Position numbers and translations under genes: made by a program
Shown: positions 1,678 to 37,847 of the stretch, one piece after another
How the letters are laid out: every line of letters starts with the position of its first letter
Numbering within the stretch: position 1 is the first letter of the stretch
IMG/VR virus record: IMGVR_UViG_3300028304_000465
Length of the DNA stretch: 64,000 bases
DNA from: a virus
Direction: 5' to 3' (one strand)
Notes under the pieces: model-generated
Database searches by the model: none
What the model was told of the DNA's origin: nothing
Seen by the model: only the letters and a program-made list of their open reading frames with translations

Positions 1678-1846
1678 CGACCGTCACCTCCCTCGGAAGG
1701 GCCACCAGCAGACACGTACCCGCGCCGGGTAGCCTGCGCTACTCGCGTTCGCGAGGGATGCTCGAAAAACAGATTCCGTGCTCTCGACGTGTTGAAAACA
1801 CCGAAAACAACAGGCAGCCGTCCCTCGGGACGGACTTTATTTCGGA

Positions 1847-1878
1847 TGGACTCGCCGGGATTTGAACCCGGGGCCTTC
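1847..1878 (-). other. att core: 3' fragment of tRNA-Ala (T-arm plus acceptor 3' strand)
   Basis: Minus strand GAAGGCCCCGGGTTCAAATCCCGGCGAGTCCA matches the haloarchaeal tRNA-Ala 3' end; no 5' half present; 130 bp from the integrase start. Confidence 0.8.
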
Positions 1879-2008
1879 GCGCCTCGCTCCGCTCGGCGCG
1901 ACACCGCAACGCAAAGGCTCCCACTCGGGCAGGTAGTGCTACGCAGGTATCTCCTGAATGACGCACCGGAGTGTACCCCCGGTACGTTAATCACTTCTTT
2001 CTTCGACC

Positions 2009-3028
2009 ATGACAACGCTCGACCAAACTTCCCCCGAAGAAGCAGTACAGATGTACCTCAAGTACCGTGAACCAGAAATCAGTCAGACGACACTCTACGA
2101 ACACAAGTGCCGCCTTAACCGCTTTCTGGAGTGGTACGACCGCGACGACATGACCAAGATGACTCGGAAAGTCGCCGCGAAGTATCGCTTTTACCGAACC
2201 GATGAGGTCGCACCGACGACGCTGGAGAACGAGATTCGCACCTTCCGGCTGTTCATCCGATTCTGTGAGGACTTCGGATGTGTCCCTGAAGGTGTTGCAA
2301 AGCACATCGACGTGCCAACGGCGTCCAAGGACCATCGCTCCCGAGACGTGAGCCTTGAAGAGTCAGAGGCCGACGCTATCCTCGACTACCTCGGAGAGTA
2401 CCACTACGCTTCGTTCAAACACGTTCTCTTCCACCTGATGTGGAACGTTGGAGCGAGAATCGGTGGTGTCAGAGCGCTCGATGCAGGTGACTTCCGAGAG
2501 AGTCCCGACCCCGGCGTAGACGGGTGGTTCCTCGACTTCCAAGACCGCCCCGAGCAGGGGACACCGTTGAAAAATAAATGGAAGTCCGAGCGGAGAGTGC
2601 CAATCGGTGACACCCTCACTCAAACAATACAAGATTGGAAGGAGCATCATCGCCCCGATGTAGAGGACAATGAAGGGCGCAAACCGCTTCTTGCTACCGA
2701 ACAGGGCAGACCACACAAGACCACTATCCAGCGCCACATCTACGGGATGACGCGACCCTGTTGGTACGGCGCAGACTGTCCTGAAGAGCGCGACCCCGAT
2801 GAGTGTGAGGCCGCCGGGCCGAAGCAAGCCGCGTCGAAGTGCCCCGCGTCTCGCTCGCCTCATGCCCTTCGACGTGGTAGGGCAACAGCGAACCTCAACA
2901 AAGGGATGACGAAAGACATGACCAGCGAACGCATGGACATGTCTCGTGAAGTGCTTGACGAACACTACAATAAACAGACCGAGGAGGATAAGCGACGACT
3001 CCAGCGGAAGTTCCTTGACGGGGACTAA
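2009..3028 (+). CDS. int: tyrosine integrase (SNJ2-like haloarchaeal family)
   Basis: Catalytic R (GARIGG), HxxR (SPHALRRGR), Y (VLDEHY); N-terminal SAM-like domain; adjacent to tRNA fragment. Confidence 0.92.
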   Translation: MTTLDQTSPEEAVQMYLKYREPEISQTTLYEHKCRLNRFLEWYDRDDMTKMTRKVAAKYRFYRTDEVAPTTLENEIRTFRLFIRFCEDFGCVPEGVAKHIDVPTASKDHRSRDVSLEESEADAILDYLGEYHYASFKHVLFHLMWNVGARIGGVRALDAGDFRESPDPGVDGWFLDFQDRPEQGTPLKNKWKSERRVPIGDTLTQTIQDWKEHHRPDVEDNEGRKPLLATEQGRPHKTTIQRHIYGMTRPCWYGADCPEERDPDECEAAGPKQAASKCPASRSPHALRRGRATANLNKGMTKDMTSERMDMSREVLDEHYNKQTEEDKRRLQRKFLDGD

Positions 3029-3957: not shown

Positions 3958-4412
3958 GCGTGTATCTCCTCATGGTCGTACTGTTCGTGTAGTGCCTCGA
4001 TGTACTTTTCTCTATCTTCATCACCCTCAAACTCTTCTCGGATGTTCTCTCCACTCTCGCTTTGATCGTGTCGGAGAAGATCGAGACAGGTGTTGCACAG
4101 CCCTGCTGATACTTGGTCCATCTCGCCGTGACACGTATCGAAGAACTTACACTTCAGTTCTTCATCGTCAACTTCGGGCGTCCAGTTCTCGTGTGCTTTA
4201 TCCATCCAGTAGCTTATCTTCGAGGGAGTTGTCCCGAGGACGTGGGCTACTTCGTATTGGTACGTGTGCTTTTCGTCTAACTGGACCATCAGTTCATGGT
4301 CCTTCCACGGCTCATCTCTGCTCTTGAAAGCGGGATGGGGTGACGGGCCGAGTTCGTCTTCGAGGTCGCGTTCAGTCTTGGCTGTCATGAGTACACTCTT
4401 CTCCATTTTCAT
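3954..4412 (-). CDS. HTH plus Cys-rich protein (152 aa)
   Basis: PWKD...EVAHVLGTTPSKISYWMDK HTH-like segment; CxxxxxC...CNTC. Confidence 0.7.
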   Translation of the reverse strand: MKMEKSVLMTAKTERDLEDELGPSPHPAFKSRDEPWKDHELMVQLDEKHTYQYEVAHVLGTTPSKISYWMDKAHENWTPEVDDEELKCKFFDTCHGEMDQVSAGLCNTCLDLLRHDQSESGENIREEFEGDEDREKYIEALHEQYDHEEIHA

Positions 4413-4944
4413 CTATCGGTACGACCCCGCCGCCGCAGTGGGGACATGAACCGAGAGCGAGTATTGGCTTGCCAACGTTGCCACAGTTACAACACCGGGA
4501 CTTTACAGCATCTTCTGGAAGTAGGCCAGTCATGTTCCTGTTTCCAGAGTCCGGCCGCAACCCTCACAGGTAAACTGAGACTCGGCGTATTCGGCCATGA
4601 GCGTGTAACTCGCCCCTTTTCGCCAATTCCTGTGTTCACACTCCGTACAGATGATGCAGATTGCTTTCTGTTGGGACTCCTCTGCCTCTTGCTCGTCGGG
4701 GTGGTCGATGTCAACCATTCTTCGGATACTGTTCTTCGAGACGAATATTAGCGAGCGTTACATCAGCGTCTTTCTGGTTGTCAACAGTTTTGATAACCGA
4801 TGAGTCGTCGTGTTTTGCCTCGACGCAGAGGCGAACGTCGTAGCCCCGTTCTTCGAGTTTGTCCCGAAGAGCGAGGACTGTTTCTTCATCCATTGGTTCT
4901 GTTTCCCACGTATCCGCCGCTCTCGTTGCACGACGGTCATTCAT
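4372..4944 (-). CDS. three small overlapping ORFs (4372-4560 and 4530-4718 Zn-finger; 4711-4944 hypothetical)
   Basis: CCNCG/CPHCG; CTEC/CEGC; acidic; start-stop overlaps. Confidence 0.6.
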
Positions 4945-6565: not shown

Positions 6566-6651
6566 GGCGTAAGCACTCCCTCGTCACAAAGAGAGCAGTC
6601 AGTGCCTCGATTCCTTACATCGGTGTAACCGCAGTTTGTACAGGTGTTCAT
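6562..6651 (-). CDS. micro Zn-finger protein (29 aa)
   Basis: MNTCTNCGYTDVRNRGTDCSLCDEGVLTP; preceded by the GGGACACAACC leader; TGA overlaps the next ATG. Confidence 0.6.
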   Translation of the reverse strand: MNTCTNCGYTDVRNRGTDCSLCDEGVLTP

Positions 6652-6712
6652 GGTTGTGTCCCGCCTCGTTTGGCGGGGAGGCCGACGCCGGGGGATGACC
6701 CCGGGGCGAGCG

Positions 6713-6970
6713 TTACTCTTCGTCGGTTTCTACTTGCTCTGCACACCGTTCGAGCATCGCGGCTTGATACAACTCGTCGTTGTTCTCGCCGTGACGCTCC
6801 GCAGAGAGCCGCATCGCTTCAGCCATCTCTCTGGCTTGTTCAGCACCGAGCGTTCTTGCTCCCTGACCTTCGATGCTCACGAAGACGTAGCCGTCCTCGT
6901 TCCACACTTCCATCTCATTCTCTCTCCGCTTCAACTCGAAGTCGTCATCGTCATCGAATAGCCGACCCAT
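6713..6970 (-). CDS. hypothetical protein (85 aa)
   Basis: Acidic ORF. Confidence 0.65.
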   Translation of the reverse strand: MGRLFDDDDDFELKRRENEMEVWNEDGYVFVSIEGQGARTLGAEQAREMAEAMRLSAERHGENNDELYQAAMLERCAEQVETDEE

Positions 6971-6975
6971 GATTG

Positions 6976-7746
6976 TTATACCATCTTGTCTCTTTTACGT
7001 GTTAGTGAAGGCTCTGTGTCTTGTCCTTCAGGGTACAGCCAATCCCTGAACGTCCGTTTCTTTTCTCCGTAGAACGTGAGACGATAGATTTCTGACTCGT
7101 AGATGGGTGGGTCCATCGGAAGCCAGTCTGCTACCTTCTCTAACTGTTTCTCGGAACTGCTTGCTATTTGTATGTGTTCAGGGACAACAGTGCCATCTGC
7201 ATCGAAGAGGCCCCGAGTGAACGCCACTCTAAGTTCCTCACCGATGAGGGGTGGTAGTGCTTCACTTGTCGTCTTATCCCTGTCACATCCGAGTTCAACT
7301 AATGACTCTACAAACTCTTTGTTCCCAATCTTCACCCGATAACCGTCTTTGGGTTGTTGGAGTTTGTGACCGCTATCTATCGCGTCTATGAACTTTTGGA
7401 TATGAGACTTGTCGCTCTCTTTCAGGTGAAGCACACAGGAAGCGTGGTCATCGGTGAGCGAGACGTAGCCGTCACCGTAGAGGAACCCGAGCCAGTACGC
7501 CTTCTCGGTCGTGTCCACCTCATCGAAGTACGACCTGTTGAGTGGCTTCTTGCGCCATTCGCTTGTCTGTCTCGACTCTAACCCTACGGCTTCTTTTGCT
7601 TCTTCCCACCCTCCCCACCGCTTCGCAACGGTCTTACGAGAAGGTAGTTCATCGAACTGCTGGTACTCTCGTGCGGTCGGGGAGTCACCGACTCTCCGAG
7701 CCGCCTCAAGCAACGCCGCCTCGCACTCTTCCTGTGTGTAACTCAT
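6976..7746 (-). CDS. free-standing LAGLIDADG homing endonuclease with N-terminal helical repeat domain
   Basis: AYWLGFLYGDGYV and AFTRGLFDADGTV motifs; N-terminal EECEAALLEAARRVGDSPT..Y...PS..T...RWGGWEEAK. Confidence 0.85.
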   Translation of the reverse strand: MSYTQEECEAALLEAARRVGDSPTAREYQQFDELPSRKTVAKRWGGWEEAKEAVGLESRQTSEWRKKPLNRSYFDEVDTTEKAYWLGFLYGDGYVSLTDDHASCVLHLKESDKSHIQKFIDAIDSGHKLQQPKDGYRVKIGNKEFVESLVELGCDRDKTTSEALPPLIGEELRVAFTRGLFDADGTVVPEHIQIASSSEKQLEKVADWLPMDPPIYESEIYRLTFYGEKKRTFRDWLYPEGQDTEPSLTRKRDKMV

Positions 7747-7753
7747 TACCTAC

Positions 7754-9139
7754 CTACTCCGATTCTTCTGTTTCAGCAGTACCAGCAAGCATCGTCTGAA
7801 GTTCGTCACGGCGACTCTCGAACTCATCTCGTTGGTCAGACAAGTCTCGCTTGGCTTTTTCAACCTTTGCCTCGAAGGAGAACTCATCCAATTCTCCTTC
7901 TCCGCCCTCTCCATCCTCGCCAGTAGCCGCACGCCTCTGTCTCTCTGCCCGCTGTTGGGCGTTAGCGTCGATGGTTTCGAGGGCTTGGGTCGGGTTCATC
8001 ACGAAGTCGTTAGCGGTTTGCACGAGTTCGTTGAGACGGCTCGTGTTTTCTCCGCCTCGGTAGTGGTGAGTAATAGCGTAAGTTGCCCCGGAGTGAACCT
8101 CCCAACAGGTAGGTAAGAACTGGTTCTCGGCACGACTCCGAACGTGCGAGGCGGCTTCGCGGGCGAGGTAGGTCGGGAACCCCACCATCTCGAAGTACGC
8201 CTGAAGGTCGTCGGCGTGGTCGAGGACTTCGCTGAAGTTGAAGTCGAGGTAGTCCACCTCGATTTCACCAGCGGCCTCGATGAGTTCCGCGAGTTGATCC
8301 GTCATCAGGTCCATCTCGCAGAGAATGTCGTCCCACCACTCTCGGGTTTCCGAGGGGTCCCCGACGTGGCGTCGGGTCTTTTGATCTGTGATGTTCCGAA
8401 TCGAGTTGGAACACCATGTATCCTGACCGAAGCCCTCGGCGTAGAGTGCAGTCCCGCCGAAGTAGTCGTACCCCGTGCGGACACCGAGGAGGATGGGGTT
8501 CGAGGAGCCACCGTCTGCGGCTACCTGTTCGTCATCCTGCTCGCCGGGGTTGTCGATGCGGAACTTGTCGAACAACATCTCGATGTGGACCTCGCCACCA
8601 CCCTTGTACTTCTTGAGGGTGCCGAATACATGGTCCCCGAGGTCTTCGTCACGAATCGCCTCTTCGAGCGGTTCGTAGAAGTCCAGCGGCGACACTACGG
8701 CGTAGTCCGACGTGGGGTTGTGCCATAGGGCGTCGAGGAACTGCTCTTCCTCGTTTCGGTAGGTGCCCTGAATCCACTGTTCGAGCTTATCAGGGGAGAT
8801 GACCGACTGGAAGCGGTCAGTCTCCACGAACAGCGCACCGTCACGAGTTTGGTGGAGCGTGACCCCATCGGGGGCCTCTTCCTGTACCGCTTTCACATCG
8901 ATGCGCTTTGCCACCTTGTCGGGAACACGCCATGCGTTCCCGGTCGGCTCTGCACCTTCGAGGGAGCGAATTGCCGACGCGAGAGACGTATCAGGCATGT
9001 CGTCCGGGTAGATGCCTTCGTCCCGTGAGTGGTCCGACGTGGCGGCAGTTTCCGCCTTCTCAGAGAGCGTCACGTTGTTGTGGGTAGTCAGACCGGCGAA
9101 TTGTACGACTTCACACGGTTCCGTAGAGCGTCCGTACAT
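7754..9139 (-). CDS. DUF932-like phage/plasmid protein (461 aa)
   Basis: Pattern Y.VVSP.DF ... G...NxxxG..AL...G....WC.NS recalls DUF932; acidic coiled-coil tail. Confidence 0.6.
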   Translation of the reverse strand: MYGRSTEPCEVVQFAGLTTHNNVTLSEKAETAATSDHSRDEGIYPDDMPDTSLASAIRSLEGAEPTGNAWRVPDKVAKRIDVKAVQEEAPDGVTLHQTRDGALFVETDRFQSVISPDKLEQWIQGTYRNEEEQFLDALWHNPTSDYAVVSPLDFYEPLEEAIRDEDLGDHVFGTLKKYKGGGEVHIEMLFDKFRIDNPGEQDDEQVAADGGSSNPILLGVRTGYDYFGGTALYAEGFGQDTWCSNSIRNITDQKTRRHVGDPSETREWWDDILCEMDLMTDQLAELIEAAGEIEVDYLDFNFSEVLDHADDLQAYFEMVGFPTYLAREAASHVRSRAENQFLPTCWEVHSGATYAITHHYRGGENTSRLNELVQTANDFVMNPTQALETIDANAQQRAERQRRAATGEDGEGGEGELDEFSFEAKVEKAKRDLSDQRDEFESRRDELQTMLAGTAETEESE

Positions 9140-9259
9140 GGTTGGTTGTGTCCCGTCGTTACTTAGATCGAGCGCCCGACAGGTGGCGCAAAGCCTGCTT
9201 CGGGAGTCGAACCCGACGCACGCATTACGTTCTTGTAGTGCGCTCCCCTCGGAACAGAC
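9140..9259 (-). ncRNA. tRNA-like element plus pseudoknot leader cassette A
   Basis: 7-bp acceptor GTCTGTT/AGCAGGC, T-arm TCGGG-TTCGACT-CCCGA, then GCGCC-ACCTGTCG-GGCGC...CGACGGG-ACACAACCAACC-ATG. Confidence 0.7.
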
Positions 9260-9263
9260 ACAA

Positions 9264-9296
9264 TCAAAGAATAGATAGGCTAATCCTTAATTCTTT
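9264..9296 (-). promoter_or_regulatory. early promoter, class AAAGA(A/T)TTAA-N~12-TCTTTGA
   Basis: BRE/TATA-like AAAGAATTAAG about 27 nt upstream of the cassette A 5' end; same class at 11049, 16777, 18321, 19388, 60220. Confidence 0.7.
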
Positions 9297-9484
9297 GGGA
9301 TCGTTCTGAAAAATTTGCTCAGTCTCGTGAGAGTTTCAGCGAACCGGAACGTGTACGCAGTTCGTGTCGCAGGAGCGGCAGAACAGTGTCTTTCCCCACT
9401 CCGAGTTCTGTGCTTGTTCACGGGTGTCGTACCCTCTGTCGCTTAATTTCTCGAAGTCGCATTGGGTACAGAGATACATCGTTA

Positions 9485-9874
9485 TTACTCGATGCGTTCT
9501 CTGTTTTGGTTAATGAAGTTCAGTACCTTTTCAGGATCAGGAGCGCCGCCAGTTCGCTCCATCACCCGACCGAGGACTTCATGGTTGGACATGGCTTCTG
9601 GTGTTCCCTCCTCGAAGACCTCCTCGACCGATTCTGCAAAGTCAGGCATCTCTCGGTCGAACACCTCTTCGAGAGCGATGCGGTCCACGGTAGCCTGCGG
9701 AACATCGAGCCGTTCCGAGATGCTTGGCGTGTCCACATCAGGGATGTCGATTTCGATTTCCGAGTCGATACACAATTCGAAGGGGCCGAGGTCATCTGGT
9801 GCAGTCTTCCGCGACCGAACTGTTTCGTCTTTCCAGTCTACGATGAGGTAATAGTTGAGCGTTTTCGTTGTCAT
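9485..9874 (-). CDS. hypothetical protein (129 aa)
   Basis: Acidic ORF. Confidence 0.7.
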   Translation of the reverse strand: MTTKTLNYYLIVDWKDETVRSRKTAPDDLGPFELCIDSEIEIDIPDVDTPSISERLDVPQATVDRIALEEVFDREMPDFAESVEEVFEEGTPEAMSNHEVLGRVMERTGGAPDPEKVLNFINQNRERIE

Positions 9875-10041
9875 GGGTGTTGGCAGTTGTTGTTAGTGTG
9901 TCTTCTGACTGTTCTCTTGTCTCGCTCCATCATGAACGCAATTTCAGGTACACTGCGCCCACTCATATGGAGGTGTCTCATCGCCTCGCACTCGTGGTAT
10001 CCGACGTAGTTCTTCGCCCTTTCAGCGAAACTGCGGCTCAT
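9871..10041 (-). CDS. small HTH protein (56 aa)
   Basis: GRSVPEIAFMMERDKRTVRRH HTH-like. Confidence 0.6.
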   Translation of the reverse strand: MSRSFAERAKNYVGYHECEAMRHLHMSGRSVPEIAFMMERDKRTVRRHTNNNCQHP

Positions 10042-10499
10042 GCGTGAGCCTCGCTCCACTCGAAATACTCTGACCACCTTTCACGTAGAGATGGCTCAGA
10101 TTCTTTGCGCTTCTTCTGTTTGTTGAACTCTTCTACCATGTCCAATTTCTCGTTTGTCCATCGGTTTGACTGAAGCGCCGCCTCTCGGTCCCGAAGGTAC
10201 GGCCACGCGCTTACCACTACACGGTAGCCATCTACGTGGTAGCCAGCGATAAGCCAGTATTCTATGCCACCGAACCGCGACCAATGAAACGCGGCGCATC
10301 CATCTTTGTTATCCTTCAGATGTCCCTCACTGATGAGTCGTGCAATAACCTCACCATTAAGGAACCGCTCCGGCTCCTTCATTCGCTGAAGGAAGTGAAT
10401 GTGTAGATGGTACTTGTGGGGCTGGTGCGGGTAGTCCTGCTTACAGAACTCCCGTGACCTATCGAGGTCGATGCCACCCCCCTTTTCCCACTTGTTCAC
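10038..10499 (-). CDS. hypothetical protein (153 aa)
   Basis: Coupled ORF, aromatic-rich. Confidence 0.65.
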   Translation of the reverse strand: MNKWEKGGGIDLDRSREFCKQDYPHQPHKYHLHIHFLQRMKEPERFLNGEVIARLISEGHLKDNKDGCAAFHWSRFGGIEYWLIAGYHVDGYRVVVSAWPYLRDREAALQSNRWTNEKLDMVEEFNKQKKRKESEPSLRERWSEYFEWSEAHA

Positions 10500-10780
10500 A
10501 GTGGAATCACCCGTGCTTCCTTATCCAACATCGCCCGCTCGATGAGGCTACGAAGCACGATGCCCTCCGAAAGCGTGTCCTCGAACGCCGTGTCAGCGGC
10601 GAGTCCTTCCTCGCCCGGCGAGATGGAGACGCCGAGTTTGACTCGCTCGACGCCGTTACTGAACTCGATACGCGCCTCGTCGGGAACTTCATCGAGGTCC
10701 GTATGAGGGGATTCAGTGGCGTCTACGGTATGAGCGTAGAACGCTTCGACCGCATCGCTGAACTGCTGTACCCCACTCAT
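10496..10780 (-). CDS. hypothetical protein (94 aa)
   Basis: Acidic ORF; ATGA overlap. Confidence 0.65.
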   Translation of the reverse strand: MSGVQQFSDAVEAFYAHTVDATESPHTDLDEVPDEARIEFSNGVERVKLGVSISPGEEGLAADTAFEDTLSEGIVLRSLIERAMLDKEARVIPL

Positions 10781-10908
10781 CGGTTTAGTATCGCGTCGTG
10801 GTATCGGCCCATGATGGCACGCAGGTTAGTCGTGTTGTAGTTCTCGCGGATTCGGTCAACGTAACTTTTCTTTGCTTTCTCTCGAACGTTATTGGATACG
10901 TTTCTCAT
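10777..10908 (-). CDS. small basic protein (43 aa)
   Basis: MRNVSNNVREKAKKSYVDRIRENYNTTNLRAIMGRYHDAILNR; directly after cassette B leader. Confidence 0.55.
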   Translation of the reverse strand: MRNVSNNVREKAKKSYVDRIRENYNTTNLRAIMGRYHDAILNR

Positions 10909-11023
10909 GGTTGGTTGTGTCCCGCCGTGTTGCAGTCATCACGCCCGACAGGGTGGCGCTCAAGGAGGCCAGCATGGAATTGAACCATGCTTAGACCACT
11001 TGGCCCCGTAGGGTGTCCCTCCC
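10909..11023 (-). ncRNA. tRNA-like element plus pseudoknot leader cassette B
   Basis: GGAGG/CCTCC closing stem, T-arm AGCATGG-TTCAATT-CCATGCT, then AGCGCC-ACCCTGTCG-GGCGT...CGGCGGG-ACACAACCAACC-ATG; promoter at 11049-11058. Confidence 0.68.
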
Positions 11024-11085
11024 TATCAAACAATTGATCCGGAGAGGGTTAAATCTTTATGCCATAACCCGATGAGGGGGTTGTG

Positions 11086-11862
11086 TTATCGCTGACGAAG
11101 CTCCGCTACTAACTCCTCCACCTCATCGCGTTCTTCCTCGATGTCGCTCTGCGTTTCCTGATGGATGGGAGCGTTCGACGCGGCGTTCTTGATAGAGAGC
11201 CACCGCTCGAAGAACAACGCGAGATCGCGGTGGAGATCACGCGGAACCTCGTCTTCGAGGCCAGCTTGTCGGATGACGACAGGGATGGTGTCGCCGGAAC
11301 GACGCCGCCGCATGATCTTCTGGAGAATTTTGTTATCGAGTTCCAGCACTCCCTCGAAGTCGTCCTGATCCTCGAAGAAGACGAGTTCTTCTCCGAGGAC
11401 ACCGAAGTAGTCCACGAGCATTGCCAGTTCCACCACCCCGCAGTGACAGTAGGGACAGAACTCTGCTACCTCCGTGAGTTCGTCCGAGACGGAGAAGGCC
11501 GAGCGGATGTCGTGCTTACTATCGGAGTGTCCGTGGTTGAGGCCACACACCGGACACTCGAAGCCGCTAACCGAGGTCTGAGAAGTCATCTGTGCGGCCT
11601 CTTCGAGCAGTGCCTTCATTTCGCTGTCCACGTCTTCGTCCATTCCATCGAGGAGTCGGTCGAAGTCGTCCTCCGAAGGACCGCCGCCGGACGAGTGGTT
11701 GCCGAGGCCCCACCGCTGGATGTCGCGGCTGTCTTCGTTCACCTCGATAACGTTACCTCGTCCGTCGTCTCCCGCGAAGCGGTCACGGACGTTCTCTACG
11801 AAGTTGAAGCCGGTTTCTTCGCTCTGCGTCTCGTCGTTGCTCTCGTCGTTGATGTCGAACAT
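11086..11862 (-). CDS. acidic Zn-binding protein (258 aa)
   Basis: CPVCGLNH and CPYCHC motifs. Confidence 0.75.
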   Translation of the reverse strand: MFDINDESNDETQSEETGFNFVENVRDRFAGDDGRGNVIEVNEDSRDIQRWGLGNHSSGGGPSEDDFDRLLDGMDEDVDSEMKALLEEAAQMTSQTSVSGFECPVCGLNHGHSDSKHDIRSAFSVSDELTEVAEFCPYCHCGVVELAMLVDYFGVLGEELVFFEDQDDFEGVLELDNKILQKIMRRRRSGDTIPVVIRQAGLEDEVPRDLHRDLALFFERWLSIKNAASNAPIHQETQSDIEEERDEVEELVAELRQR

Positions 11863-11957
11863 CGGTTAGCTGTGTCCCGTCGTGATTTTATCATCACGCC
11901 CGACAGGTTGGCGCTTGAAGCCCCGGAGAGGAGTCGAACCTCCCTGCTCCTACGGGG
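11863..11957 (-). ncRNA. tRNA-like minihelix plus pseudoknot leader cassette C
   Basis: CCCCG/CGGGG stem, T-arm GGAGG-TTCGACT-CCTCT, then AGCGCC-AACCTGTCG-GGCGT...CGACGGG-ACACAGCTAACCG-ATG; starts right after the upstream stop codon. Confidence 0.68.
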
Positions 11958-13676
11958 TTAGAGGTTCTTTGCCTCTGCCGCAAGAATCATGATTCCCTGT
12001 GTTTTTTGCTTGAAGGGAGGATGACCCTCTCGCTCTTCCACTGCGTATTCGCTCTCATATCGCTCGTTGAAGAGGTCACGGACGGCGTGGGCGTTCTCCC
12101 TGCTGTCGAAGGCCGCCAACCCGTTTTTAGTCGAATCCTCGTTCCAGAGTTGGTAGTATATCATGACATTGAGGCGGTCTGAGGCTGGTTGTCCGGCTTC
12201 AGATGTTCCCACTCATACGGCTCGAAAGAGAGATTTCTCGGCGCGGCTTCTTTCTCGGTCCCCTCGACCACGGCGTCCACGTTGTTGAGTAGGCCGAGGT
12301 TCCGCATCTGTTGCTTGTTACACCCCCCTGAGTGGTGCCGCTCGTTGTCGGGGTTATACCACCCTCGGAAGCCTATCGTGAAGCCATCGGGGAAGCGGTA
12401 TCCGTAGACCGCATGACCGTAGGCTACGAGCATCGTTCCGCCCCACTCGTGTTCTTCGACTCTAACTCGTGAAGCCGAGCCGCGCGTGCTGTCCTCTCTC
12501 CACCGTCGTCCGAGTTCTGTGTAAGAGTAACTCATGTGTTTTCAACGGCCTTCTGTTTCGCATGATCGTCGTGTTTTGCTATCTTTAGGTGAACGAACCT
12601 ACCGAACAACCGAGCCGCGAATCCAACTAATTCTCGGAACTCAGACGAGTTCCGGTAGATGTCGAACATCGGTTCCTCGGGACTTGGGTGAACTGTGAGT
12701 CTGACTTCGTATCTCATGACTTAACGACCCCCGGTTTGATTGTTTGGCGCTTGTTTAATTGCCCACAGTGACCGGGCCACGAACTCCATCTCTGCGTCTG
12801 TCAGTCGGTACGTTTCACCATCGGCGGTGATGGTGCGGTTCTCGTTCCCCACATGGCTAAGGCTCATCTGATAGGCAGGCTCTGAAGAGCCTGCCCGAAC
12901 TGCGCTACCGGAGACTGTACGCGAGGTAGTCCCCGGATGAATGAACTCGTTGTCCCACGTCAGAAGCAAGTGGCCGTTGATGAGCCACCCATCATCACGC
13001 ATTTCGATACTATTTCCGAGGGCGGCGCTTTCACCGATGTAGTTCACGACTCTCTGTCGAACCACATTAGCTCGGAGCCTATCGTAGAGTCGGAGGAGCG
13101 GCGCTGGATTGCGTTCTCCATCATTTCCGTAGCAGTCCATGAGAGCATCCACCAACTCCGACTTCTGGTGTTCTCCGATGTGAAGTGGCTCCGTCTCGTC
13201 CACTTCCATCGTGTACTCCCGAGCGTCCTCACCGGGGATGAGGGTAACTCCTCGATCCTCACCGTCCAGTTGGAGGATTTCACTTCCGTCTCGAAGCACA
13301 CCCCACAGGCCGTGGTCGAAGAGCAGTCGGTTGAGGGGGGAGAGTGAGACGTTCTCAACACTCCCATCCTTGTGCTGTACCAGCATGTTCGTGTCCGTCT
13401 TGTCGAGGACTTTGTTGACGCTCATCGTTCTACCTCGGACCAGTTACCCCGAAGAACAACCTTGGTTGTGAAATGTGAGTCTTCTGGAAGTCCGCTTACG
13501 TAGTCCACTCTGTAAGGACGTATCTGCTCTACGTTGAACGGGACCGAACTGTACTCACTCAAGTACAGATGAATCTCGCTGTTACCACATGCTCGGACTG
13601 CATTATACTTCGTCTGTGATTGCAGGTACTCAACCGCTTGCCGTTGATGTTCGTTTGAGTAGGCTTCTTCAGTCAT
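11958..13676 (-). CDS. five hypothetical ORFs (11958-12212, 12161-12535, 12532-12717, 12721-13425, 13422-13676)
   Basis: Tightly coupled ORFs in the ORF track with plausible composition. Confidence 0.6.
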
Positions 13677-13680
13677 AGTT

Positions 13681-16479
13681 TTACCATGTGAGTTCGAGGC
13701 AGTTCGTAACGTTCGAGCGCAGTTCTTCGAGGTCAACCCCCTCGTCGGTGGGGTCGATACCTGCATCGTGAAGTGCGAGCAGAATCTCATTAATGCCGCC
13801 GCTGTTGTAGCTCTCCATCCAGTCGTACACGCCACTCTCGTTGTCCCACTTCGGCGTCTCTGCCTTCTGTTTGAGTTCACGCCGAGTGGAGCCACTGATT
13901 TTCGTTTCCGAGCCGGGGAAGCGAATGGGGATACGCTTCGTACTGAACCGAACAGTGAGCATTTCTCCGCTGTCAATATTGAGTAAGTGACTTCTGAAGG
14001 CGTAGGCGGCCCGCTCGAAGGTCCGAGAGTCGATGACACCTACTGTGAACTCGTCATCTTCGTTGAAAGAATAGGACAAGCTAAGTGCCTTCTTCGCGTA
14101 GAGGTTACGGAGTCGGATTGTCGTGTCGTCATCCTGAAGGAGACGCTTTTGCTTCTTCGATGTTGCGTAGAACAGCACGATCTTCTTGTTATGATTGGCC
14201 ATTTCCCCCACGGTGAGCGGTCCACCGGCCGTTGCTATAACCGTGTTTTCTGACCACTCCGTGAACTCTTCGTAGGTCATGACCCGAGGAGAGTCGATGA
14301 GAGCATCGTATTCATCGGTCGTGACCGACGTGATGGCGGCAAACCTCTGCATCGAGTAGTGGTCCGAGATGTTCTCATAGTCAGCCCCTCGGGGAAACAC
14401 TACGAAGAAGTTGTGACCGTCGATGGGATTCCCCGCCTCGATGCGGCCGTTGATCCTTTCAATAGTCCAACGATGGTCTATCTTCTTGTTCTGTGAGTTA
14501 GACCGAATCTTCAGTGTACTCTGTTCGAGAGAAGAGTTACTGCCGTCTCCCCCCTCATCGGTTTTGACAGTTTTGGTGTGTCTCTTGTGAATACTATCAG
14601 AAACGTCGAAGTCATGTTCATCACTCTGTTCCAACGGCACTTCTTTCAGGTAGCCGAACCCGAAGTGTTTCTCGTAGAAGTCGTACTCCGAAGCACTACC
14701 TAACACGATCACAGCGGCGTTGTCGTAGGTATCGTTTACAACTTGGTACTGATCCGTGAAGTTGCCTCCTGACGAGGCCGCCATGAACGTTTCATCGAGG
14801 TCGGCTTTAGCGAGGATGTTACCGAGCAGTTTCTCGGAGCGGCGCTTCTTCTTTGAGGGGTCGTGGGAGTCAGGGACAGCGTAGTCCACTTCCTCGAAGA
14901 GCTTTGCCACCTTCGCGCACATTCCGTCGTCCCAATCAGGCAGGTAGTCGCTATCCTGAAGGTAGTCCGTGATGTTATCCACGTCCATCGAGTAGGGGCC
15001 GTGGTAGTCCACCATACGGTAGAATACCACCCACTCGTCCTGATTGTCGTTCACCGCTATGGCGGGATGCTCTGCCTCCTCCATCTTCTCCGCAAAGACT
15101 CCTGCTTGTTTCTCTTCCTCGGCCTCCATCAACTTCGTTAGATACTGGAAGAACTGCTTGGCTTGACTGTCCTTCTGAAGCCTGTCACGATCTCCGGTTG
15201 GCTCGGGAAGCACGATGTCGTCCTCGTGGACCTCTGCGATGGCCTCTTCACGAGGATCGTCGGAGGGGTCTGCCACGACCATGCCGTCCTTGAAGTACAG
15301 CCCACGATGAGGGCCGTGGACAATACGGCGTTGTTCGTCGTGAATCTGAATTGCTGTATTCCAGAGCGACTTCACGTTGTGACCTGTATTGCGGTCGATT
15401 CGCATAGAGACGAGCCATGTATTTGGAGCCTTGTACGACGAAGCCACGTCAGGCCCGGCAACGATGCTGAACTCACCGGGACGGTCAACTTGGATGGGTG
15501 GGTTATTATGGTACTCTGCGATGTCGGTTCCTCCGTACTCTTCCTTCTCGATCACTCGACCGTTTTCGTGTTCGCGGTACAGCACCGGAACCCGAAGCAT
15601 CTCAGAGTACTTCGCCACCCAATCTTGGATGTTGTCGATGTTGATGCTATCCTGAATCGGAATCGTGAACCGAGTCCCTGTGAACTCTTCAGGGTCGAAC
15701 CCGTCGGGAGTTTCATCGAGTTCCTTCACACCACCGAGCTTGGCGTAGAAGTGGATACCCGAGGCATCCTTTGGTGTCTCGGGATTTACGCTTCGGGTTA
15801 GCACGTTCATGCCACCTTGCTTCCCCGTAATGTTACCGAAGGTCAGCGCTCCCATCCCCATCCGACCGCCCGTGTCGCCGTCCACGATGGCTCCGCTGTT
15901 AAGGGTCGTGTTGTAGGCTTCGACCACCTCACGGCCCGTCATGCCGATGCCGTTGTCCTCGGTCACGATCTCTCGCCCGTCTCGGTAGAGGTCGTAGGTG
16001 ATGGTGGGGTCGTACCCGATGTCTCGGGCCGCTTCGACCACAGCCGAGAGGGGTTGTGGAACCTCGATCTTCTTCAGGTCGCCCATGTCAGTTTCAGCCC
16101 ACTCCTGAAGCACCTTCTGTGGGTCGTCGTCATTCGTTACTGTTTCGCCAGTCTCGGCATGAACCCACATCGTTTGGGTGAGCGAATCAGCACCGTAGTC
16201 GGGGTGATTCCGGAGCAGGAACCGACACTTTCGAATACACGCTGTCTCGTGGTTCTGCTGGTGTTCTCGCGCCCATGCTTCGTCGCTGTCGTAAATCATG
16301 TCCGACAGCATCTCCGTAAGGCGTTCGTTGGAACTCACTTCACGCTCCACGAAGCCTGTTTCACCAGTATGCTCTTCAATCGCGCCTCCACTCTCCATCT
16401 CGAAGTCGGCGGTTCCGACGTTACCCTCTGCTTCTTCGATACGATTCGGCTCGGTCGTGTCCGGCAGGTTTTGACTCAT
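13681..16479 (-). CDS. GHKL (Hsp90/MutL-type) ATPase-domain protein, rIIA-like (932 aa)
   Basis: N-box AWAREHQQNHET, G1 TEDNGIGMT, G2 GRMGMGALT, G3 GTRFTIP. Confidence 0.75.
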   Translation of the reverse strand: MSQNLPDTTEPNRIEEAEGNVGTADFEMESGGAIEEHTGETGFVEREVSSNERLTEMLSDMIYDSDEAWAREHQQNHETACIRKCRFLLRNHPDYGADSLTQTMWVHAETGETVTNDDDPQKVLQEWAETDMGDLKKIEVPQPLSAVVEAARDIGYDPTITYDLYRDGREIVTEDNGIGMTGREVVEAYNTTLNSGAIVDGDTGGRMGMGALTFGNITGKQGGMNVLTRSVNPETPKDASGIHFYAKLGGVKELDETPDGFDPEEFTGTRFTIPIQDSINIDNIQDWVAKYSEMLRVPVLYREHENGRVIEKEEYGGTDIAEYHNNPPIQVDRPGEFSIVAGPDVASSYKAPNTWLVSMRIDRNTGHNVKSLWNTAIQIHDEQRRIVHGPHRGLYFKDGMVVADPSDDPREEAIAEVHEDDIVLPEPTGDRDRLQKDSQAKQFFQYLTKLMEAEEEKQAGVFAEKMEEAEHPAIAVNDNQDEWVVFYRMVDYHGPYSMDVDNITDYLQDSDYLPDWDDGMCAKVAKLFEEVDYAVPDSHDPSKKKRRSEKLLGNILAKADLDETFMAASSGGNFTDQYQVVNDTYDNAAVIVLGSASEYDFYEKHFGFGYLKEVPLEQSDEHDFDVSDSIHKRHTKTVKTDEGGDGSNSSLEQSTLKIRSNSQNKKIDHRWTIERINGRIEAGNPIDGHNFFVVFPRGADYENISDHYSMQRFAAITSVTTDEYDALIDSPRVMTYEEFTEWSENTVIATAGGPLTVGEMANHNKKIVLFYATSKKQKRLLQDDDTTIRLRNLYAKKALSLSYSFNEDDEFTVGVIDSRTFERAAYAFRSHLLNIDSGEMLTVRFSTKRIPIRFPGSETKISGSTRRELKQKAETPKWDNESGVYDWMESYNSGGINEILLALHDAGIDPTDEGVDLEELRSNVTNCLELTW

Positions 16480-18338: not shown

Positions 18339-19290
18339 CTACGGCGGCGACCCGGCTCGGTCGTACCTCTCGTTCAGTTCACGAAGGGTCAGTTCGTCGT
18401 TGTAGGTGTTCCCCGTGAAGGGCATCTTGATGCGACCCTCGATGATGCTGTCACCATCATTCGGGATGACCACCTCATCGACGGCAAGGGGTTCATCAAT
18501 CGAGGCCAGTCCATCCACGATGAACTGCTCACACTCACCTTCGGCCTCGAACTCTCCGAGCCATGTCTCTCCGATGCGAAGCCTCATGGTTTACACCGAT
18601 GAGGTGGGTTCCGCAATATTGTTGATAGCCCTCCCTATAGCCTCGAACTCTGCCTGTCCATCCTTACAGCCGAAGGAGTGACCCCATACTACTGTCTCCC
18701 ACGTCGGTTCTTCGAGGTTGTAGAGCAGTATCTCGGCACACTTCACTTTCTCCTCGAAGTGATGGATGTCAGGAAGCACCTCCTGATAGGCTTCGGGATC
18801 GCCCATCTTCTCCACCTCATCGGGGTCAGCAAGTTTCTGGACTTCCTCGAACACTTCGAGGGTGACTTCCGCGCCGTTCAACAGTTCCGAAGGCAGTTTG
18901 AACTCACTCATGATTAGCCCCACGTTAGGTCTACTTCATCGTTCGCTCTGGTCGGTTCAACATCCGAGAGGATGTGCGCTTCTTCGTGGCGGTCCACCCT
19001 CTTACCCTTCTTACGCTGGTTTACAGCCTCGGTTACGCTGGAGGCATGGTCGCCGTCGTAGTCGTTGAAGTTCGAGCGATGGTCCCACTCGTTTTCCTCA
19101 CTCATAGGGCAACCTCTTCGTCCCACATCGCTACTTCCGCCGGGGTTTTCGGCTGTGCTTCGAGATCGCGGTGCCGCTCCTCGCGGTGTTCGCCGCCGTC
19201 TGCCTGCGTCCCTGAAAACATGGGGTCGATGGTGAACTCGGGTTCATCTTCGCGCTGTTCTTCAATCGGGACCGCCGCGATTTCATACAT
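18339..19290 (-). CDS. four small ORFs (18339-18587, 18591-18911, 18914-19105, 19102-19290)
   Basis: Acidic coupled ORFs downstream of promoter at 19388. Confidence 0.62.
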
Positions 19291-20642: not shown

Positions 20643-21524
20643 TTACAGAAGGTCGCCGCAGGCCGTACAGAAGTGGACCACGTCGATACCCGGAAGGCCT
20701 TCGGCCAACTTCACGTCACTCGAAGGGTGGTCGCACTCGTTGATAGCCTCGATGCGCTCTGCTTCGCTATCGTAGGAGGGGAGGGACAGGGTTCGCGGGT
20801 CGTGAATCTCGGGCGTAGCGCTCATGCCTCGACCCCTTCCAGCGCCGCTTCAACTTCTTCGTCGGTCGGAACTACACTCACGCTAAAGTTCGTGAGCGTT
20901 TCTTCGCGTTCGTCCATCGCTCCGGGGATGTAGAACTCGAACTCGGTTTTCATCCCTTCGAGGCGACCCCCTTCGCGCTGGTCGAGCGTAACTTCGACGT
21001 GACCGGGAGCGCCTTCAACGTCTGCGTCTCCATAGACCGTCATGGAGACGATGTTCTTGTGAAAGAACTCGTCTCCAGCGGCGGCCAGCATCTTTCGCGT
21101 TTCCTGTGTGTTCATCTGCGGTTCGCTCTCGATGGAAAGGGTGATGTCACTCATGTTAGAATTCTCCGTGGGGGCTTTCCTCTTCGTGCTTTGCGGCGTT
21201 CCGAATCGCTCGAATTTGCGCTCGCTTTGCTTCCCACTCTATGTGGTTCACGGGGTTCACGACTGCTTCGGTGGTGTGGTCGGCCATCTCTTGCGCTTTG
21301 CGCTCCTTGTAGCGCAGGAAGGGGAAGAACGAGAACGGACCCCCTCGAAGGGCCTCTTCGAGCGTCCGTCCGATAACGAGTTCAGCCGTACACTCTCCGA
21401 GAATCAGTTTCGCTTCAGCCGCTTCGAGCGCTCCCGAAACTTCGTCCTCGATGAACTTCAGGGGGTTGATGTGATCCGCGTATTTCTTGGGAGTAACGTG
21501 GGAACCGTCGTAGGTTTTCGCCAT
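20643..21524 (-). CDS. three ORFs (20643-20825 with CTAC, 20822-21154, 21156-21524)
   Basis: Coupled acidic ORFs. Confidence 0.65.
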
Positions 21525-37334: not shown

Positions 37335-37844
37335 ATGGACCTTACGGATGTAATTACAGAGTTCGTTAGTCACTTCGACACGAACGTATCGGCTCCTGTT
37401 CGTGTCTCTGGTATGGAGGACGAGCGGCCCGTTCCGCTTGTTCTCATCGAAGACTGGAACACGACGGACTACACATGGCACAACTCACAGTTCGCCGGTC
37501 AAGCTGTTGACCCCGATGATGGTGTGGAGAAACGCTACTTCCGCTTCTACTGGTCCATGCGCGTAGACCTGCTCATCCGTCATCACGACGACGTGCAGGC
37601 GCACCGGCTACTCGATGAGGTTCGGAAGGCGCTCATCGACGTGAAGCGCGACCCGCTGGCCTTCCACGGAGAACTGAACGCTCTCGATCTTCGCGGCTCT
37701 GGTGGCATCCAACACCAGTTCCTCGAATCAAAAGAAACGGAACTTCAGCAATCGTTCCGCGTTACGTCGTTCCACGAAGTCAAGGACGACAACTACGACA
37801 CGCTCGAAGAGATAGTCAACGACTTCACCCTCAAAGAAATCTAA
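37335..37844 (+). CDS. tail terminator protein (putative)
   Basis: Position before sheath; RPVPLVLIE motif. Confidence 0.6.
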   Translation: MDLTDVITEFVSHFDTNVSAPVRVSGMEDERPVPLVLIEDWNTTDYTWHNSQFAGQAVDPDDGVEKRYFRFYWSMRVDLLIRHHDDVQAHRLLDEVRKALIDVKRDPLAFHGELNALDLRGSGGIQHQFLESKETELQQSFRVTSFHEVKDDNYDTLEEIVNDFTLKEI

Positions 37845-37847
37845 CTT

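Follow-up and report, generated by a model that had tools for sequence, protein, structure and literature searches.

A conserved family of t-element-like tRNA mimics in haloarchaeal tailed viruses: candidate signals for transcript processing

Three tRNA-like elements and their leaders

The window analysed here, 64,000 nt of DNA from the IMG/VR virus record IMGVR_UViG_3300028304_000465, belongs to an uncultured hafunavirid halovirus, an archaeal virus of salt lakes. The initial annotation had drawn attention to three tRNA-like elements, A (9193-9259), B (10963-11023) and C (11921-11957), and all three are indeed found there on the minus strand. Their surroundings comprise the following features (in parentheses, the basis for each):

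9137..9192, minus strand: leader of a DUF932-like gene, after element A (direct repeat family D1; pseudoknot parse and covariation)
9193..9259, minus strand: element A, an atypical relative (sequence, descriptor parse and constrained fold)
9287..9296, minus strand: AAAGAATTAA box, a TATA-like promoter motif that precedes A (sequence)
10906..10964, minus strand: leader of a small ORF (10777-10908), after element B (direct repeats; pseudoknot parse)
10965..11007, minus strand: element B, a family member (covariance model R2, 42.1 bits, E 6.5e-08)
11008..11058, minus strand: AAAGATTTAA box (11049-11058), then a predicted ~20-nt 5' leader that precedes B (sequence)
11860..11920, minus strand: leader of a 258-aa ORF (11086-11862), after element C (direct repeats; pseudoknot parse)
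11921..11957, minus strand: element C, a family member (R2, 50.0 bits, E 7.2e-10; ORF table)
6650..6715, minus strand: a related leader without a tRNA-like element (sequence; no R2 match)

Element C consists of a 5-bp outer stem, the 8-nt connector TAGGAGCA and a 6-bp inner stem (one G.U pair) that carries the loop TTCGACT; as had been remarked previously, it comes right after an upstream stop codon, starting at 11957 beside the TAA (11958-11960) that ends ORF 11958-12212. Element B has a 7-bp outer stem (11001-11007 paired with 10965-10971), the 10-nt connector AGTGGTCTAA and a 6-bp inner stem, and in isolation its minimum free energy (MFE) fold, as given by RNAfold, is identical to the family fold. 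The TTCAATT loop of B was correctly recognised at the outset, but the 5+7 bp stack and the start at 11023 have to be revised, as comparison with the family gives 7+6 bp and a start at 11007. In the original version of the stem, GGGAGG of the leader (11018-11023) could pair with CCTCC (10964-10968). A GGGAG...CTCCC pairing also flanks the HSTV-2 orthologue of B, but the sequences are identical in the window and in HSTV-2 and thus provide no covariation by which this alternative could be judged.

Element A is an atypical and divergent relative that lies outside the family model. Its 5-bp T-stem (9212-9216 paired with 9200-9204, loop TTCGACT) abuts a 7-bp outer stem (9253-9259 paired with 9193-9199, two G.U pairs), and its 36-nt connector starts with CCGAGG and can form an extra hairpin. 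The T-arm and the outer stem thus stand as first described, but R2 matches the T-arm alone (14.5 bits) with the rest off-model, and the tRNA-like fold (-22.8 kcal/mol, outer-helix probability ~0.38) is not the MFE fold (-24.7 kcal/mol).

The promoter boxes of the window read AAAGA(A/T)TTAA, and the box of A, together with a conserved TTTGA, recurs in front of B, at 18.3 kb and in HSTV-2. Transcription start sites (TSS) for A and B were predicted by the -26 rule of PMC8707807, which places that of A near 9264-9266, within the TTTGA. A and B had been thought to start at the expected TSS itself; instead, the predicted TSS precedes A by ~5-7 nt and the B minihelix by ~20 nt.

Missing from the initial annotation was a common 52-nt leader downstream of all three elements. 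After A, it runs from the linker TTT through the P1 hairpin (9185-9189 paired with 9172-9176), whose loop (9177-9183) pairs with 9152-9158 as an H-type pseudoknot, to ACACAACC, AACC and the ATG (9137-9139). The order after B is the linker CTTGA, P1 (10955-10959 paired with 10941-10945), P2 (10946-10952 paired with 10921-10927), ACACAACC and the ATG (10906-10908), and after C it is the linker CTTCAA, P1, the pseudoknot helix P2 (CCTGTCG paired with CGACGGG), ACACAGC and the ATG (11860-11862). The related leader at 6650-6715 has a GC hairpin (TCAT loop), a CCCCGCC/GGCGGG hairpin and GGGACACAACC-ATG, and the minihelix is lacking, so that the minihelix and leader modules are separable.

Several more familiar identities were tried for these elements and rejected. 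ARAGORN calls no canonical tRNA at A-C, and the Rfam tRNA model (RF00005) gives no match there at its gathering score and none at E<=10 over 9100-12000; all three lack CCA, as described earlier. Nor are they att scars, the reading that the initial annotation had set against its own proposal: in A-C the outer stem is complete on both sides, there are several copies whose stems are unrelated, and the distance to the integrase-like ORF (2009-3028) is 6-9 kb. Beside that ORF the window carries a separate att-like tRNA fragment (1844-1900), a 3' part only, that looks quite different. When B was compared with 41 genomes from the phylum of G006, a 43% GC non-halophile, which are probably not haloarchaea, only chance matches of 14-22 nt were obtained, and given the probable nature of these genomes the absence of an extended tRNA match says little about host tRNAs. 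The elements are not terminators, being followed by only 2-3 T and not by the oligo-T tract of archaea, nor are those of the window HF2 class I intergenic repeats, of which they have neither the alpha, the beta (TCTTTAAGTC) nor the gamma (CGTCTNNTAGAG) motif.

A compact RNA family in haloviruses

Elements B and C belong to a sharply defined, conserved RNA family of ~40 nt in haloarchaeal tailed viruses, which has the shape of a tRNA's upper half, with an acceptor-like outer stem stacked on a T-arm. The plan comprises an outer stem of 5-7 bp, a connector of 8-10 nt, a 6-bp inner stem and a TTCGANT T-loop, with a stacked helix that totals 11-13 bp (11 bp in most copies, versus the canonical 12). 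The hallmarks of the T-loop are complete, with the G53-C61 closing pair (G-C in 28 of 28 copies) and the loop nucleotides U54 U55 C56 R57 A58. The connector, whose first base is usually A, stands in for the D-arm, anticodon arm and variable region. It contains GG in every one of the 28 copies, as it does in 16 of the 16 descriptor matches other than real tRNAs, although the descriptor made no demand for GG; this invariant dinucleotide is placed where G18 G19 of a D-loop would contact the T-loop and could mimic the D-loop. CCA is absent from all 28 copies and from A, the consensus 3' of the outer stem being C-C/T-T-T.

A covariance-model search of halovirus genomes, which the initial annotation had suggested as a check, recovered with models R1 and R2 28 distinct copies whose stems covary (40-58 bits; 13 virus genome types in three families), followed after a gap from 40 to 24 bits by the T-arms of real tRNAs (<=24 bits). 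The acceptor-plus-T-arm family suspected from A-C is thus real, conserved and covarying, and it extends well past the window. Unrelated viral loci (0.83 Mb) gave no R2 match at E<0.1, and no R2 element is present in HRTV-DL1, an unrelated 37.7-kb siphovirus for which infection transcriptomes exist. The early observation that the stems differ in sequence and yet remain paired is borne out on this larger scale: 10 of the 11 stem pairs change on both sides, and orthologues show compensation (CTCCG/CGGAG in HF2, CCCCG/CGGGG in HRTV-8). Paired cells amount to 99% in the alignment versus 42-59% in slid controls, a figure that is partly built in, as the descriptor and the covariance model each select for pairing. 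The structural descriptor identified 17 elements in the window and five related genomes; dinucleotide shuffles gave 0.53 on average and 3 at most. When the descriptor was relaxed to accept any 7-nt loop, TTCGACT, TTCGATT and TTCAATT were the commonest loops. Simple counts of GGTTCRAMTCC and of CTGTCGGGCG revealed no enrichment of either motif alone; the signal resides in the combined structure and not in single motifs.

Pattern scans of metagenomes and genomes added only near-identical copies or chance tRNA hits, while a megablast of the region against phage records and a single-protein search of viral contigs gave no match; the pattern CGGGACACAACC-N-ATG is by itself unspecific (116 mostly unrelated loci, which we reused as a negative control). 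No description of such elements was found in Rfam or in the literature searched. The family is therefore apparently an undescribed, t-element-like tRNA mimic, and the alignment of its 28 covarying copies is ready for use as a new RNA family.

All copies are intergenic, share the orientation of the flanking ORFs and lie 12-67 nt ahead of a start codon, and a stable hairpin or pseudoknot leader usually starts 2-6 nt 3' of the element. The sites are in non-structural transcription units, where an element closely follows a promoter, abuts the stop codon that precedes it or ends the unit; some minihelices fall between a stop codon and the next promoter, a placement that fits a role at RNA ends. Those at 14939 in genome G004 and 50453 in G003 lie ahead of promoters. 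Carriers have several copies per genome, span three halovirus families and include the cultured viruses HF2, HSTV-2, HRTV-4 and HHTV-2. HF2 has two minihelices (2906-2944 and 4376-4413), both in the left 5 kb and outside the class I repeats, and in the HF-like promoter copies the outer stem begins at the TSS predicted by the -26 rule. Real tRNA genes fill the same slot (promoter or intergenic repeat, tRNA, hairpin, ATG) in HF2, HRTV-11, HCTV-6 and IMG/VR genomes, so mRNA leaders in this group of viruses must already undergo tRNA processing. At orthologous positions HSTV-2 has plain GC hairpins with a TCAC loop in place of the T-loop minihelix, hence tRNA mimicry is not indispensable at each site; where HSTV-2 has a plain hairpin, HRTV-7 has a LAGLIDADG gene and a minihelix.

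Proposed processing by host enzymes and alternative readings

Processing of the elements by host tRNase Z and RNase P is, in our estimation, the best-supported mechanism, with a probability of about 0.5. The host tRNase Z would cut immediately 3' of the outer stem and RNase P immediately 5' of it, where a 5' extension exists, and these cuts would split long primary transcripts in the manner of mitochondrial tRNAs. Downstream of a cut, the mRNA would start 2-6 nt ahead of the GC-rich hairpin or pseudoknot, a structure that could protect this new 5' terminus and expose the ACACAACC-AUG start region; upstream, the RNA would be left with a defined 3' end, and the small minihelix RNA would be freed as a by-product.

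The features that the two enzymes require are present: a stacked acceptor/T helix, a canonical T-loop, the GG and the absence of CCA, which is an anti-determinant for tRNase Z. RNase Z recognises stacked acceptor/T helices, the remaining arms being largely dispensable, and the t-elements of plant mitochondria mark mRNA ends (PMC3790967); those of Haloferax are cleaved in vivo by RNase P and tRNase Z (PMC4326828). HF2 RNAs extend over 12-35 kb by RT-PCR and appear mostly as bands of 1-2.5 kb on Northern blots, for which the authors invoke processing (PMC8707807). Our elements are concrete, mutable candidate signals for this conversion of haloarchaeal virus primary transcripts of 10-35 kb into RNAs of 1-2.5 kb, a question posed by both phiH and HF2. 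In HF2, the boundary between the F1 and F2 RT-PCR transcripts lies at the minihelix 2906-2944. The published primer-extension 5' end T-4384, however, lies inside the element at 4376-4413, in the connector at the first G of the GG, and does not match the tRNase Z product, which would start at ~4415; moreover, the F2 transcript, as seen by RT-PCR, reads through this element, so cutting is at most partial. The processing system put forward in the initial annotation is supported in part: a conserved, covarying family does occupy the leaders of non-structural genes and the gaps between their cistrons, but the HF2 5' end is off the boundary. Other predicted Haloferax tRNA-like elements reportedly stayed uncut in vitro in the hands of Holzle et al. 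(Biochimie, 2012). The RNA run that contains the window is one low-depth halite metatranscriptome in the form of contigs, in which no ends are visible and which may be DNA carry-over. A search for HSTV-2 RNA runs returned none. If the elements are cut, they would represent the first tRNA-punctuation-like system in an archaeal virus and would provide a natural set of substrates of very small size for the archaeal RNase P and tRNase Z, with a possible use as RNA release cassettes in Haloferax genetics.

Perhaps, on the other hand, the element stays uncut and acts in cis within the mRNA, as the binding site of a factor, from host or virus, that recognises the elbow or the acceptor end of tRNA (candidates are aIF2, aEF1A, the CCA-adding enzyme, a T-loop-modifying enzyme or a ribosomal site), and the bound factor would stabilise the 5' end or assist the pseudoknot and ACACAACC-AUG in starting translation without a Shine-Dalgarno sequence. 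The frequent linkage of the element to a covarying pseudoknot at a fixed 8-14 nt from the AUG speaks for this, as do the predicted TSS of the HF-like promoter copies, which would make the minihelix the very 5' end of the RNA, and T-4384 and the read-through F2 of HF2, both of which represent RNA that retains the T-arm. We nevertheless regard it as a tentative second choice: the minihelix and the pseudoknot leader occur independently (6650-6715 in the window; G004 14939; G003 50453), the same slot is filled by real tRNAs, which are necessarily excised, and the binding factor is hypothetical. Were the elements uncut, a 40-nt elbow mimic conserved in three virus families would point to a host factor that viruses exploit. 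It is also conceivable, if rather improbable, that the minihelix and the H-type pseudoknot form a two-piece tRNA mimic that docks on the archaeal ribosome or on an initiation/elongation factor and drives translation starts, the minihelix giving the elbow and acceptor and the pseudoknot an anticodon-stem/codon-like helix; this would be an IRES-like device of an archaeal virus for internal cistrons without Shine-Dalgarno sequences.

The freed minihelix of ~40 nt could also be the actual product, a stable elbow decoy that titrates a tRNA-binding enzyme of the host or a defence directed at tRNAs, any effect on the mRNA being secondary. All nucleotides of the elbow's tertiary contact are kept (T-loop and GG), more than a simple cleavage signal might need, and several copies per genome occur in unrelated halovirus families; but this unlikely scheme requires the same unproven processing, the anticodon arm that is the usual target of tRNA-directed nucleases is absent, and with stems that vary freely recognition would be by shape only. 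We give equally little credence to a role at the level of DNA, in which the tRNA likeness would be incidental and the elements would be protein-binding sites near the TSS or promoter-plus-hairpin recombination joints, like the promoter-early stem-loops that serve gene shuffling in T4-type phages. The elements do lie at module boundaries, their content varies among close relatives (HRTV-7 versus HSTV-2), many copies directly adjoin a conserved promoter motif, and the common 52-nt leader could supply recombination homology. The T-loop and GG are invariant even in promoterless copies, however, and differing stems that keep pairing, G.U pairs and an orientation that follows the genes argue for selection on RNA and not on DNA identity. 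Least of all do we expect the elements to be functionless remnants, either decayed tRNA genes or old att scars, even if real tRNA genes and an attP derived from a tRNA are present in these viruses, and A, whose 36-nt connector is near tRNA length, could be a decaying tRNA. Random decay would not bring 28 copies with unrelated stems to one precise geometry (8-10 nt connector, 11-13 bp), and both acceptor strands are retained, unlike in an att fragment.

Relation to known tRNA-like structures

Elements A-C and the family have the structural traits of a t-element, an acceptor-like stem stacked on a canonical T-arm and no CCA, although in A the stacked fold is not the MFE one. The t-element upstream of the Haloferax volcanii 5S rRNA, which is cut by tRNase Z and has been reused with RNase P for icrRNAs, is likewise a tRNA-like structure other than a tRNA that serves as a processing signal in a haloarchaeal transcript (PMC4326828), and the enzymes that act on it are those that a halovirus would meet. 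Compared by description, it is a single locus beside rRNA, whereas the viral elements are a multi-copy mRNA-leader family built on a minimal bulged-minihelix plan. The t-elements of plant mitochondria and mitochondrial tRNA punctuation are similar in that tRNAs or tRNA-like structures lying between coding regions let RNase P and RNase Z define mRNA ends (PMC3790967). Those structures are organellar and cloverleaf-like, whereas the viral family compactly packs an acceptor stem and a T-arm, with a GG like that of a D-loop, into 40 nt. We know of no viral or archaeal example of punctuation by t-elements of the mitochondrial type. In MALAT1 mascRNA, other tRNA-like 3'-end signals and the tRNA-linked small RNAs of murine gammaherpesvirus 68, a tRNA mimic embedded in a longer polymerase transcript is cut by RNase P and RNase Z, which sets the ends and releases a small RNA; these are eukaryotic systems with a full cloverleaf, while the viral family has an archaeal host and neither anticodon nor D arms.

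The tRNA-like domain of tmRNA and the tRNA-like 3' ends of plant RNA viruses also combine an acceptor and T-arm with a D-loop analogue, lack an anticodon arm and lie beside pseudoknots and an ORF. Their acceptor end is an aminoacylated RNA terminus, whereas the viral element is internal or 5' and has no CCA; to our knowledge archaea are without tmRNA, and the likeness is one of shape only. The HF2 class I repeats (Russ, Pfeiffer and Dyall-Smith 2021) occur in the same virus family and intergenic setting, but they are 58-bp DNA promoters, no minihelix follows HF2 IR1c-IR6, and minihelix structures are not mentioned in that study. The HF-like promoter-linked minihelices follow a TAAGACTTA motif that resembles the alpha motif of these repeats.

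Minihelix copies in the window and in related viruses

The tRNA-like elements on the minus strand of the window lie where the initial annotation, made from the sequence alone, had placed them, and they are not tRNAs: neither ARAGORN nor Rfam, even at E<=10, returned anything for A, B or C, and all three lack CCA, as had been noted. The sole ARAGORN call in the window, a 94-nt "tRNA" at 15994-16087 (plus strand), is very likely a false positive, being antisense within the HSP90-like ORF and having a four-base anticodon.

Elements A, B and C of the window
9193-9259, minus strand: A, 7-bp outer stem (two G.U) stacked on a 5-bp stem closing TTCGACT, with a 36-nt connector between
10965-11007, minus strand: B, 7-bp outer stem (11001-11007 with 10965-10971) and 6-bp inner stem around TTCAATT, 10-nt connector AGTGGTCTAA
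11921-11957, minus strand: C, 5-bp outer stem, 8-nt connector, 6-bp inner stem, TTCGACT loop

Element C starts, as annotated, at the base following the TAA stop codon of the preceding ORF. The loop of B also stands, but not its proposed 5+7 bp stack: comparison with the family and the minimum-free-energy fold of B alone both give 7+6 bp, and GGGAGG (11018-11023), formerly read as its 5' strand, is part of a leader of ~20 nt. Pairing is possible between the GGGAG(G) of this leader and CTCC(C) immediately 3' of the minihelix (10964-10968), as it is between the equivalent bases in HSTV-2 (L001 4062-4066 with 4120-4124). This could be a candidate enclosing helix, of which covariation is no judge because the window and HSTV-2 sequences are identical. 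Single-sequence fold z-scores are unremarkable (-1.3 to -2.1), and the argument for the elements as predicted structures rests on comparison with other copies.

A descriptor requiring an outer and an inner stem of at least 4 bp each, a 6-12 nt connector, a TTCRANN loop, an uninterrupted 3' side and a score >=10 was run on the window and five complete related IMG/VR genomes. It gave 17 matches, against an average of 0.53 and never more than 3 in 40 dinucleotide-preserving shuffles. When any 7-nt loop was permitted there were 313 matches, among which the commonest loops were TTCGACT (10), TTCGATT (4) and TTCAATT (2). GG occupies connector positions 3-5 in 16/17 descriptor matches, although the descriptor does not require it; the seventeenth, without this GG, falls within a real tRNA gene.

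Ten copies of the same geometry (alignment A2) provided a first covariance model, R1, and 21 matches (A5) a rebuilt one, R2; searching halovirus genomes ultimately recovered 28 distinct elements, aligned as A6. These score 40-58 bits, and the next-best matches, T-arms of genuine viral tRNAs, reach at most 24 bits. Membership in the window is limited to B (42.1 bits) and C (50.0 bits). Element A has the 7-bp outer stem and TTCGACT T-arm attributed to it, but its fit to the family does not hold, the T-arm alone matching R2 (14.5 bits). In a negative control of 0.83 Mb of unrelated viral loci, matches at E<0.1 occurred only in two hafunavirid loci that had been included incidentally.

Copies of the minihelix in A6, by genome
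Window: 2
Five IMG/VR genomes: 4, 2, 3, 4 and 2
HF2: 2; HRTV-8: 2; HRTV-5: 2
HSTV-2 group: 1 (identical in four isolates); HRTV-7: 1 more
HRTV-4 (Haloferuviridae), L207 9737-9783: 1
HHTV-2 (Saparoviridae), L193 37662-37710: 1
HCTV-2 (Saparoviridae), L194 42521-42559: 1

The last three, found with the covariance model at 40-43 bits, come from siphoviruses, and the minihelix is therefore not restricted to the Hafunaviridae. No family member was found in HHTV-1, HCTV-5, Hardycor1 or HRTV-DL1, and HGTV-1 gave a weak match alone (20.9 bits).

The initial annotation had observed that the stems differ in sequence yet stay paired, and this extends to the whole family: both sides change in 10/11 pairs of A6, the remaining one being the invariant loop-closing G-C. 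In all, 99.4% of cells are paired versus 42-59% with partners slid by 1-3 columns, a percentage that is partly built in because descriptor and model both favour pairing. Signals that do not depend on this come from the shuffle test, the over-representation of T-loops when any loop is allowed, the GG shared by all copies, the score gap, the clean negative control and compensatory differences between orthologues (for example CTCCG/CGGAG in HF2 versus CCCCG/CGGGG in HRTV-8).

In the A6 consensus the 5' flank, usually T-T-A, is followed by an outer stem of 5 bp (lengthened to 6-7 bp in 8 copies) and a connector that usually begins with A and continues with 1-3 nt, the invariant GG and 3-5 nt. The inner stem has 6 bp ending in G-C, G-C, and its loop is T-T-C-G-A-N-T, the lone variant being window B with A replacing G. 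On the 3' side one stem continues directly into the other, and the next base is usually C, then Y-T-T. In tRNA, the elbow is built by G53-C61, U54-A58, and U55 and C56 touching G18 and G19; by analogy, we infer that the connector GG may play the G18/G19 role.

Identity of the window and setting of the minihelices

The window comes from an uncultured virus that belongs to, or is closely related to, the Hafunaviridae, which are haloarchaeal myoviruses. This assignment rests on the 461-aa product of the gene after element A (7754-9139, minus strand), which has 64-65% identity to a DUF932 protein found in the Mincapvirus group (HSTV-2, HRTV-2, HRTV-7, HRTV-11, HCTV-6 and HCTV-15), on 45% identity between its 932-aa HSP90-like protein and the counterpart there, on a common gene order, on the absence of a DNA-level match among phage records and on the partial presence of the sequence in halite metagenome runs. 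Its non-structural arm is the minus-strand block at ~5-22 kb. In the window the DUF932 gene is followed by a LAGLIDADG/HNH-repeat homing endonuclease gene (6976-7746, minus strand); in HRTV-7 a LAGLIDADG gene (L002 5271-5915) forms an insertion immediately before the DUF932 gene, its 3' end overlapping the start of a minihelix that is absent from HSTV-2.

All family members are intergenic and on the coding strand of their neighbours, with a start codon 12-67 nt downstream. Some sit immediately after a stop codon within an operon (window C, HRTV-7 A, HHTV-2 and HCTV-2), others shortly downstream of a promoter (window B, plus HF-like copies that lie behind the motif TAAGACTTAAC...GAGTCTTA), and others between a stop codon and the next promoter (14939 and 50453 in the related genomes G004 and G003, respectively). 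For the HF-like promoter copies the -26 rule of PMC8707807 puts the predicted start site at base 1 of the outer stem. Most copies are followed by a GC hairpin that begins 2-6 nt 3' of the minihelix, and both Saparoviridae copies have stop codon, minihelix, hairpin and ATG in that order.

The hairpin loop pairs with bases ending in GGG just ahead of ACACAACC-N(0-6)-ATG in no fewer than 12 copies, A, B and C among them. These pairings covary across viruses (CCTGTCG/CGACGGG, CTCGCCG/CGGCGGG, CCCGCCA/TGGTGGG, GTCCCGA/TCGGGAC, CCCAC/GTGGG), which supports a predicted H-type pseudoknot in the leader after each element, a structure also noted separately at the outset. Minihelix and pseudoknot leader are separable modules.

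Predicted pseudoknot leaders
9137-9192, minus strand: after A
10906-10964, minus strand: after B
11860-11920, minus strand: after C
Elsewhere: L002 (HRTV-7) and loci L166, L169, L174, L175 and L180

GC hairpins with a TCAY loop make up a second intergenic class, found where other genomes carry T-loop minihelices (window 6690-6715, minus strand; HSTV-2, L001 3030-3050, 5925-5945 and 7785-7805).

tRNA genes and transcripts in relatives

In related viruses genuine tRNA genes fill the same slot. HF2 has intergenic repeat IR2 followed by tRNA-Arg and a CDS, and IR3 followed by tRNA-Asn, tRNA-Tyr, a hairpin and a CDS; HRTV-11 and HCTV-6 have tRNA-Gln with the CDS 25 nt further on; and IMG/VR genomes have tRNA-Gln, a hairpin, GAGACATAACC and ATG. 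Features of HF2 (L183) further include a hammerhead ribozyme annotated between two early genes (10292-10359), besides its tRNA genes between promoter repeats and first CDS (18509-18583 and 20736-20897) and an RtcB RNA ligase gene (37516-38880). Together, hammerhead, slot tRNAs and RtcB suggest that viruses of this group cut and join RNA extensively.

Several HF2 start sites have been mapped, and RNAs of 12-35 kb detected by RT-PCR where earlier Northern blots had given mostly 1-2.5 kb; the authors suggest processing (PMC8707807). The published primer-extension end T-4384 is the first G of the GG inside the HF2 element 4376-4413, 8 nt downstream of the start expected from the CTTAGAA box; it may reflect genuine initiation, a stop of the reverse transcriptase or an end made by processing. 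Of the RT-PCR transcripts, F1 ends within the HF2 element 2906-2944, and F2 starts just past it and reads through the second HF2 element and the hammerhead.

Possible roles of the minihelix

The minihelix mimics the upper half of a tRNA, is conserved with covarying stems, and is found where transcripts start, where units end and between cistrons. The observation of the initial annotation is confirmed and enlarged, and its reading of the elements as predicted sites of cutting by host tRNA enzymes, plausible in our view, finds partial support. We give roughly even odds to such processing: tRNase Z would cut just 3' of the minihelix, and RNase P 5' of it where a leader or upstream cistron exists, leaving the next hairpin or pseudoknot as the protected 5' end of the downstream mRNA. 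The mimic, without CCA, occupies a slot used by real tRNAs; t-elements of Haloferax are cut in vivo by RNase P and tRNase Z (PMC4326828), and stacked acceptor/T helices are what RNase Z reads (PMC3790967). Against processing, T-4384 lies inside its element rather than at the edge, some RNA reads through, the stack is typically 11 bp and not 12, and orthologous sites in HSTV-2 hold plain TCAC-loop hairpins. Moreover, predicted Haloferax tRNA-like elements besides the 5S one reportedly went uncut in vitro.

A stability or translation element that stays uncut and is bound by a putative elbow-recognising factor is a tentative alternative, which we consider rather unlikely. Clearly less likely than that, at equal odds with each other, are a released RNA serving as decoy, and DNA-level shuffling or promoter cassettes. 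That the elements are decayed tRNA genes or att scars seems least likely of all; the att reading is weak, as both outer strands are kept, the geometry is fixed with unrelated stems, and the window's own att-like fragment looks different.

In its predicted role the minihelix would act like a t-element or tRNA punctuation, but it is neither a tRNA nor an HF2 intergenic repeat. As the initial annotation thought, there is no prior description in PMC8707807, the HF1-group comparative paper or a full-text literature search, nor an Rfam entry for the family. It is a compact, multi-copy tRNA-elbow mimic that haloarchaeal tailed viruses of three or more families have in common. The sole "tRNA-like" sequence discussed in the HF2/HF1-group literature searched is an attP fragment.

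The att-like region of the window
1844-1900, minus strand: tRNA 3' fragment with a long variable-arm-like hairpin, T-arm CCGGG-TTCAAAT-CCCGG and 3' acceptor strand, no 5' strand
2009-3028, plus strand: 339-aa ORF just downstream, weak Phage_integrase match (E 8e-4, below cut-off)

Judged from sequence, these two are probably an attP plus integrase, like that of HF2.
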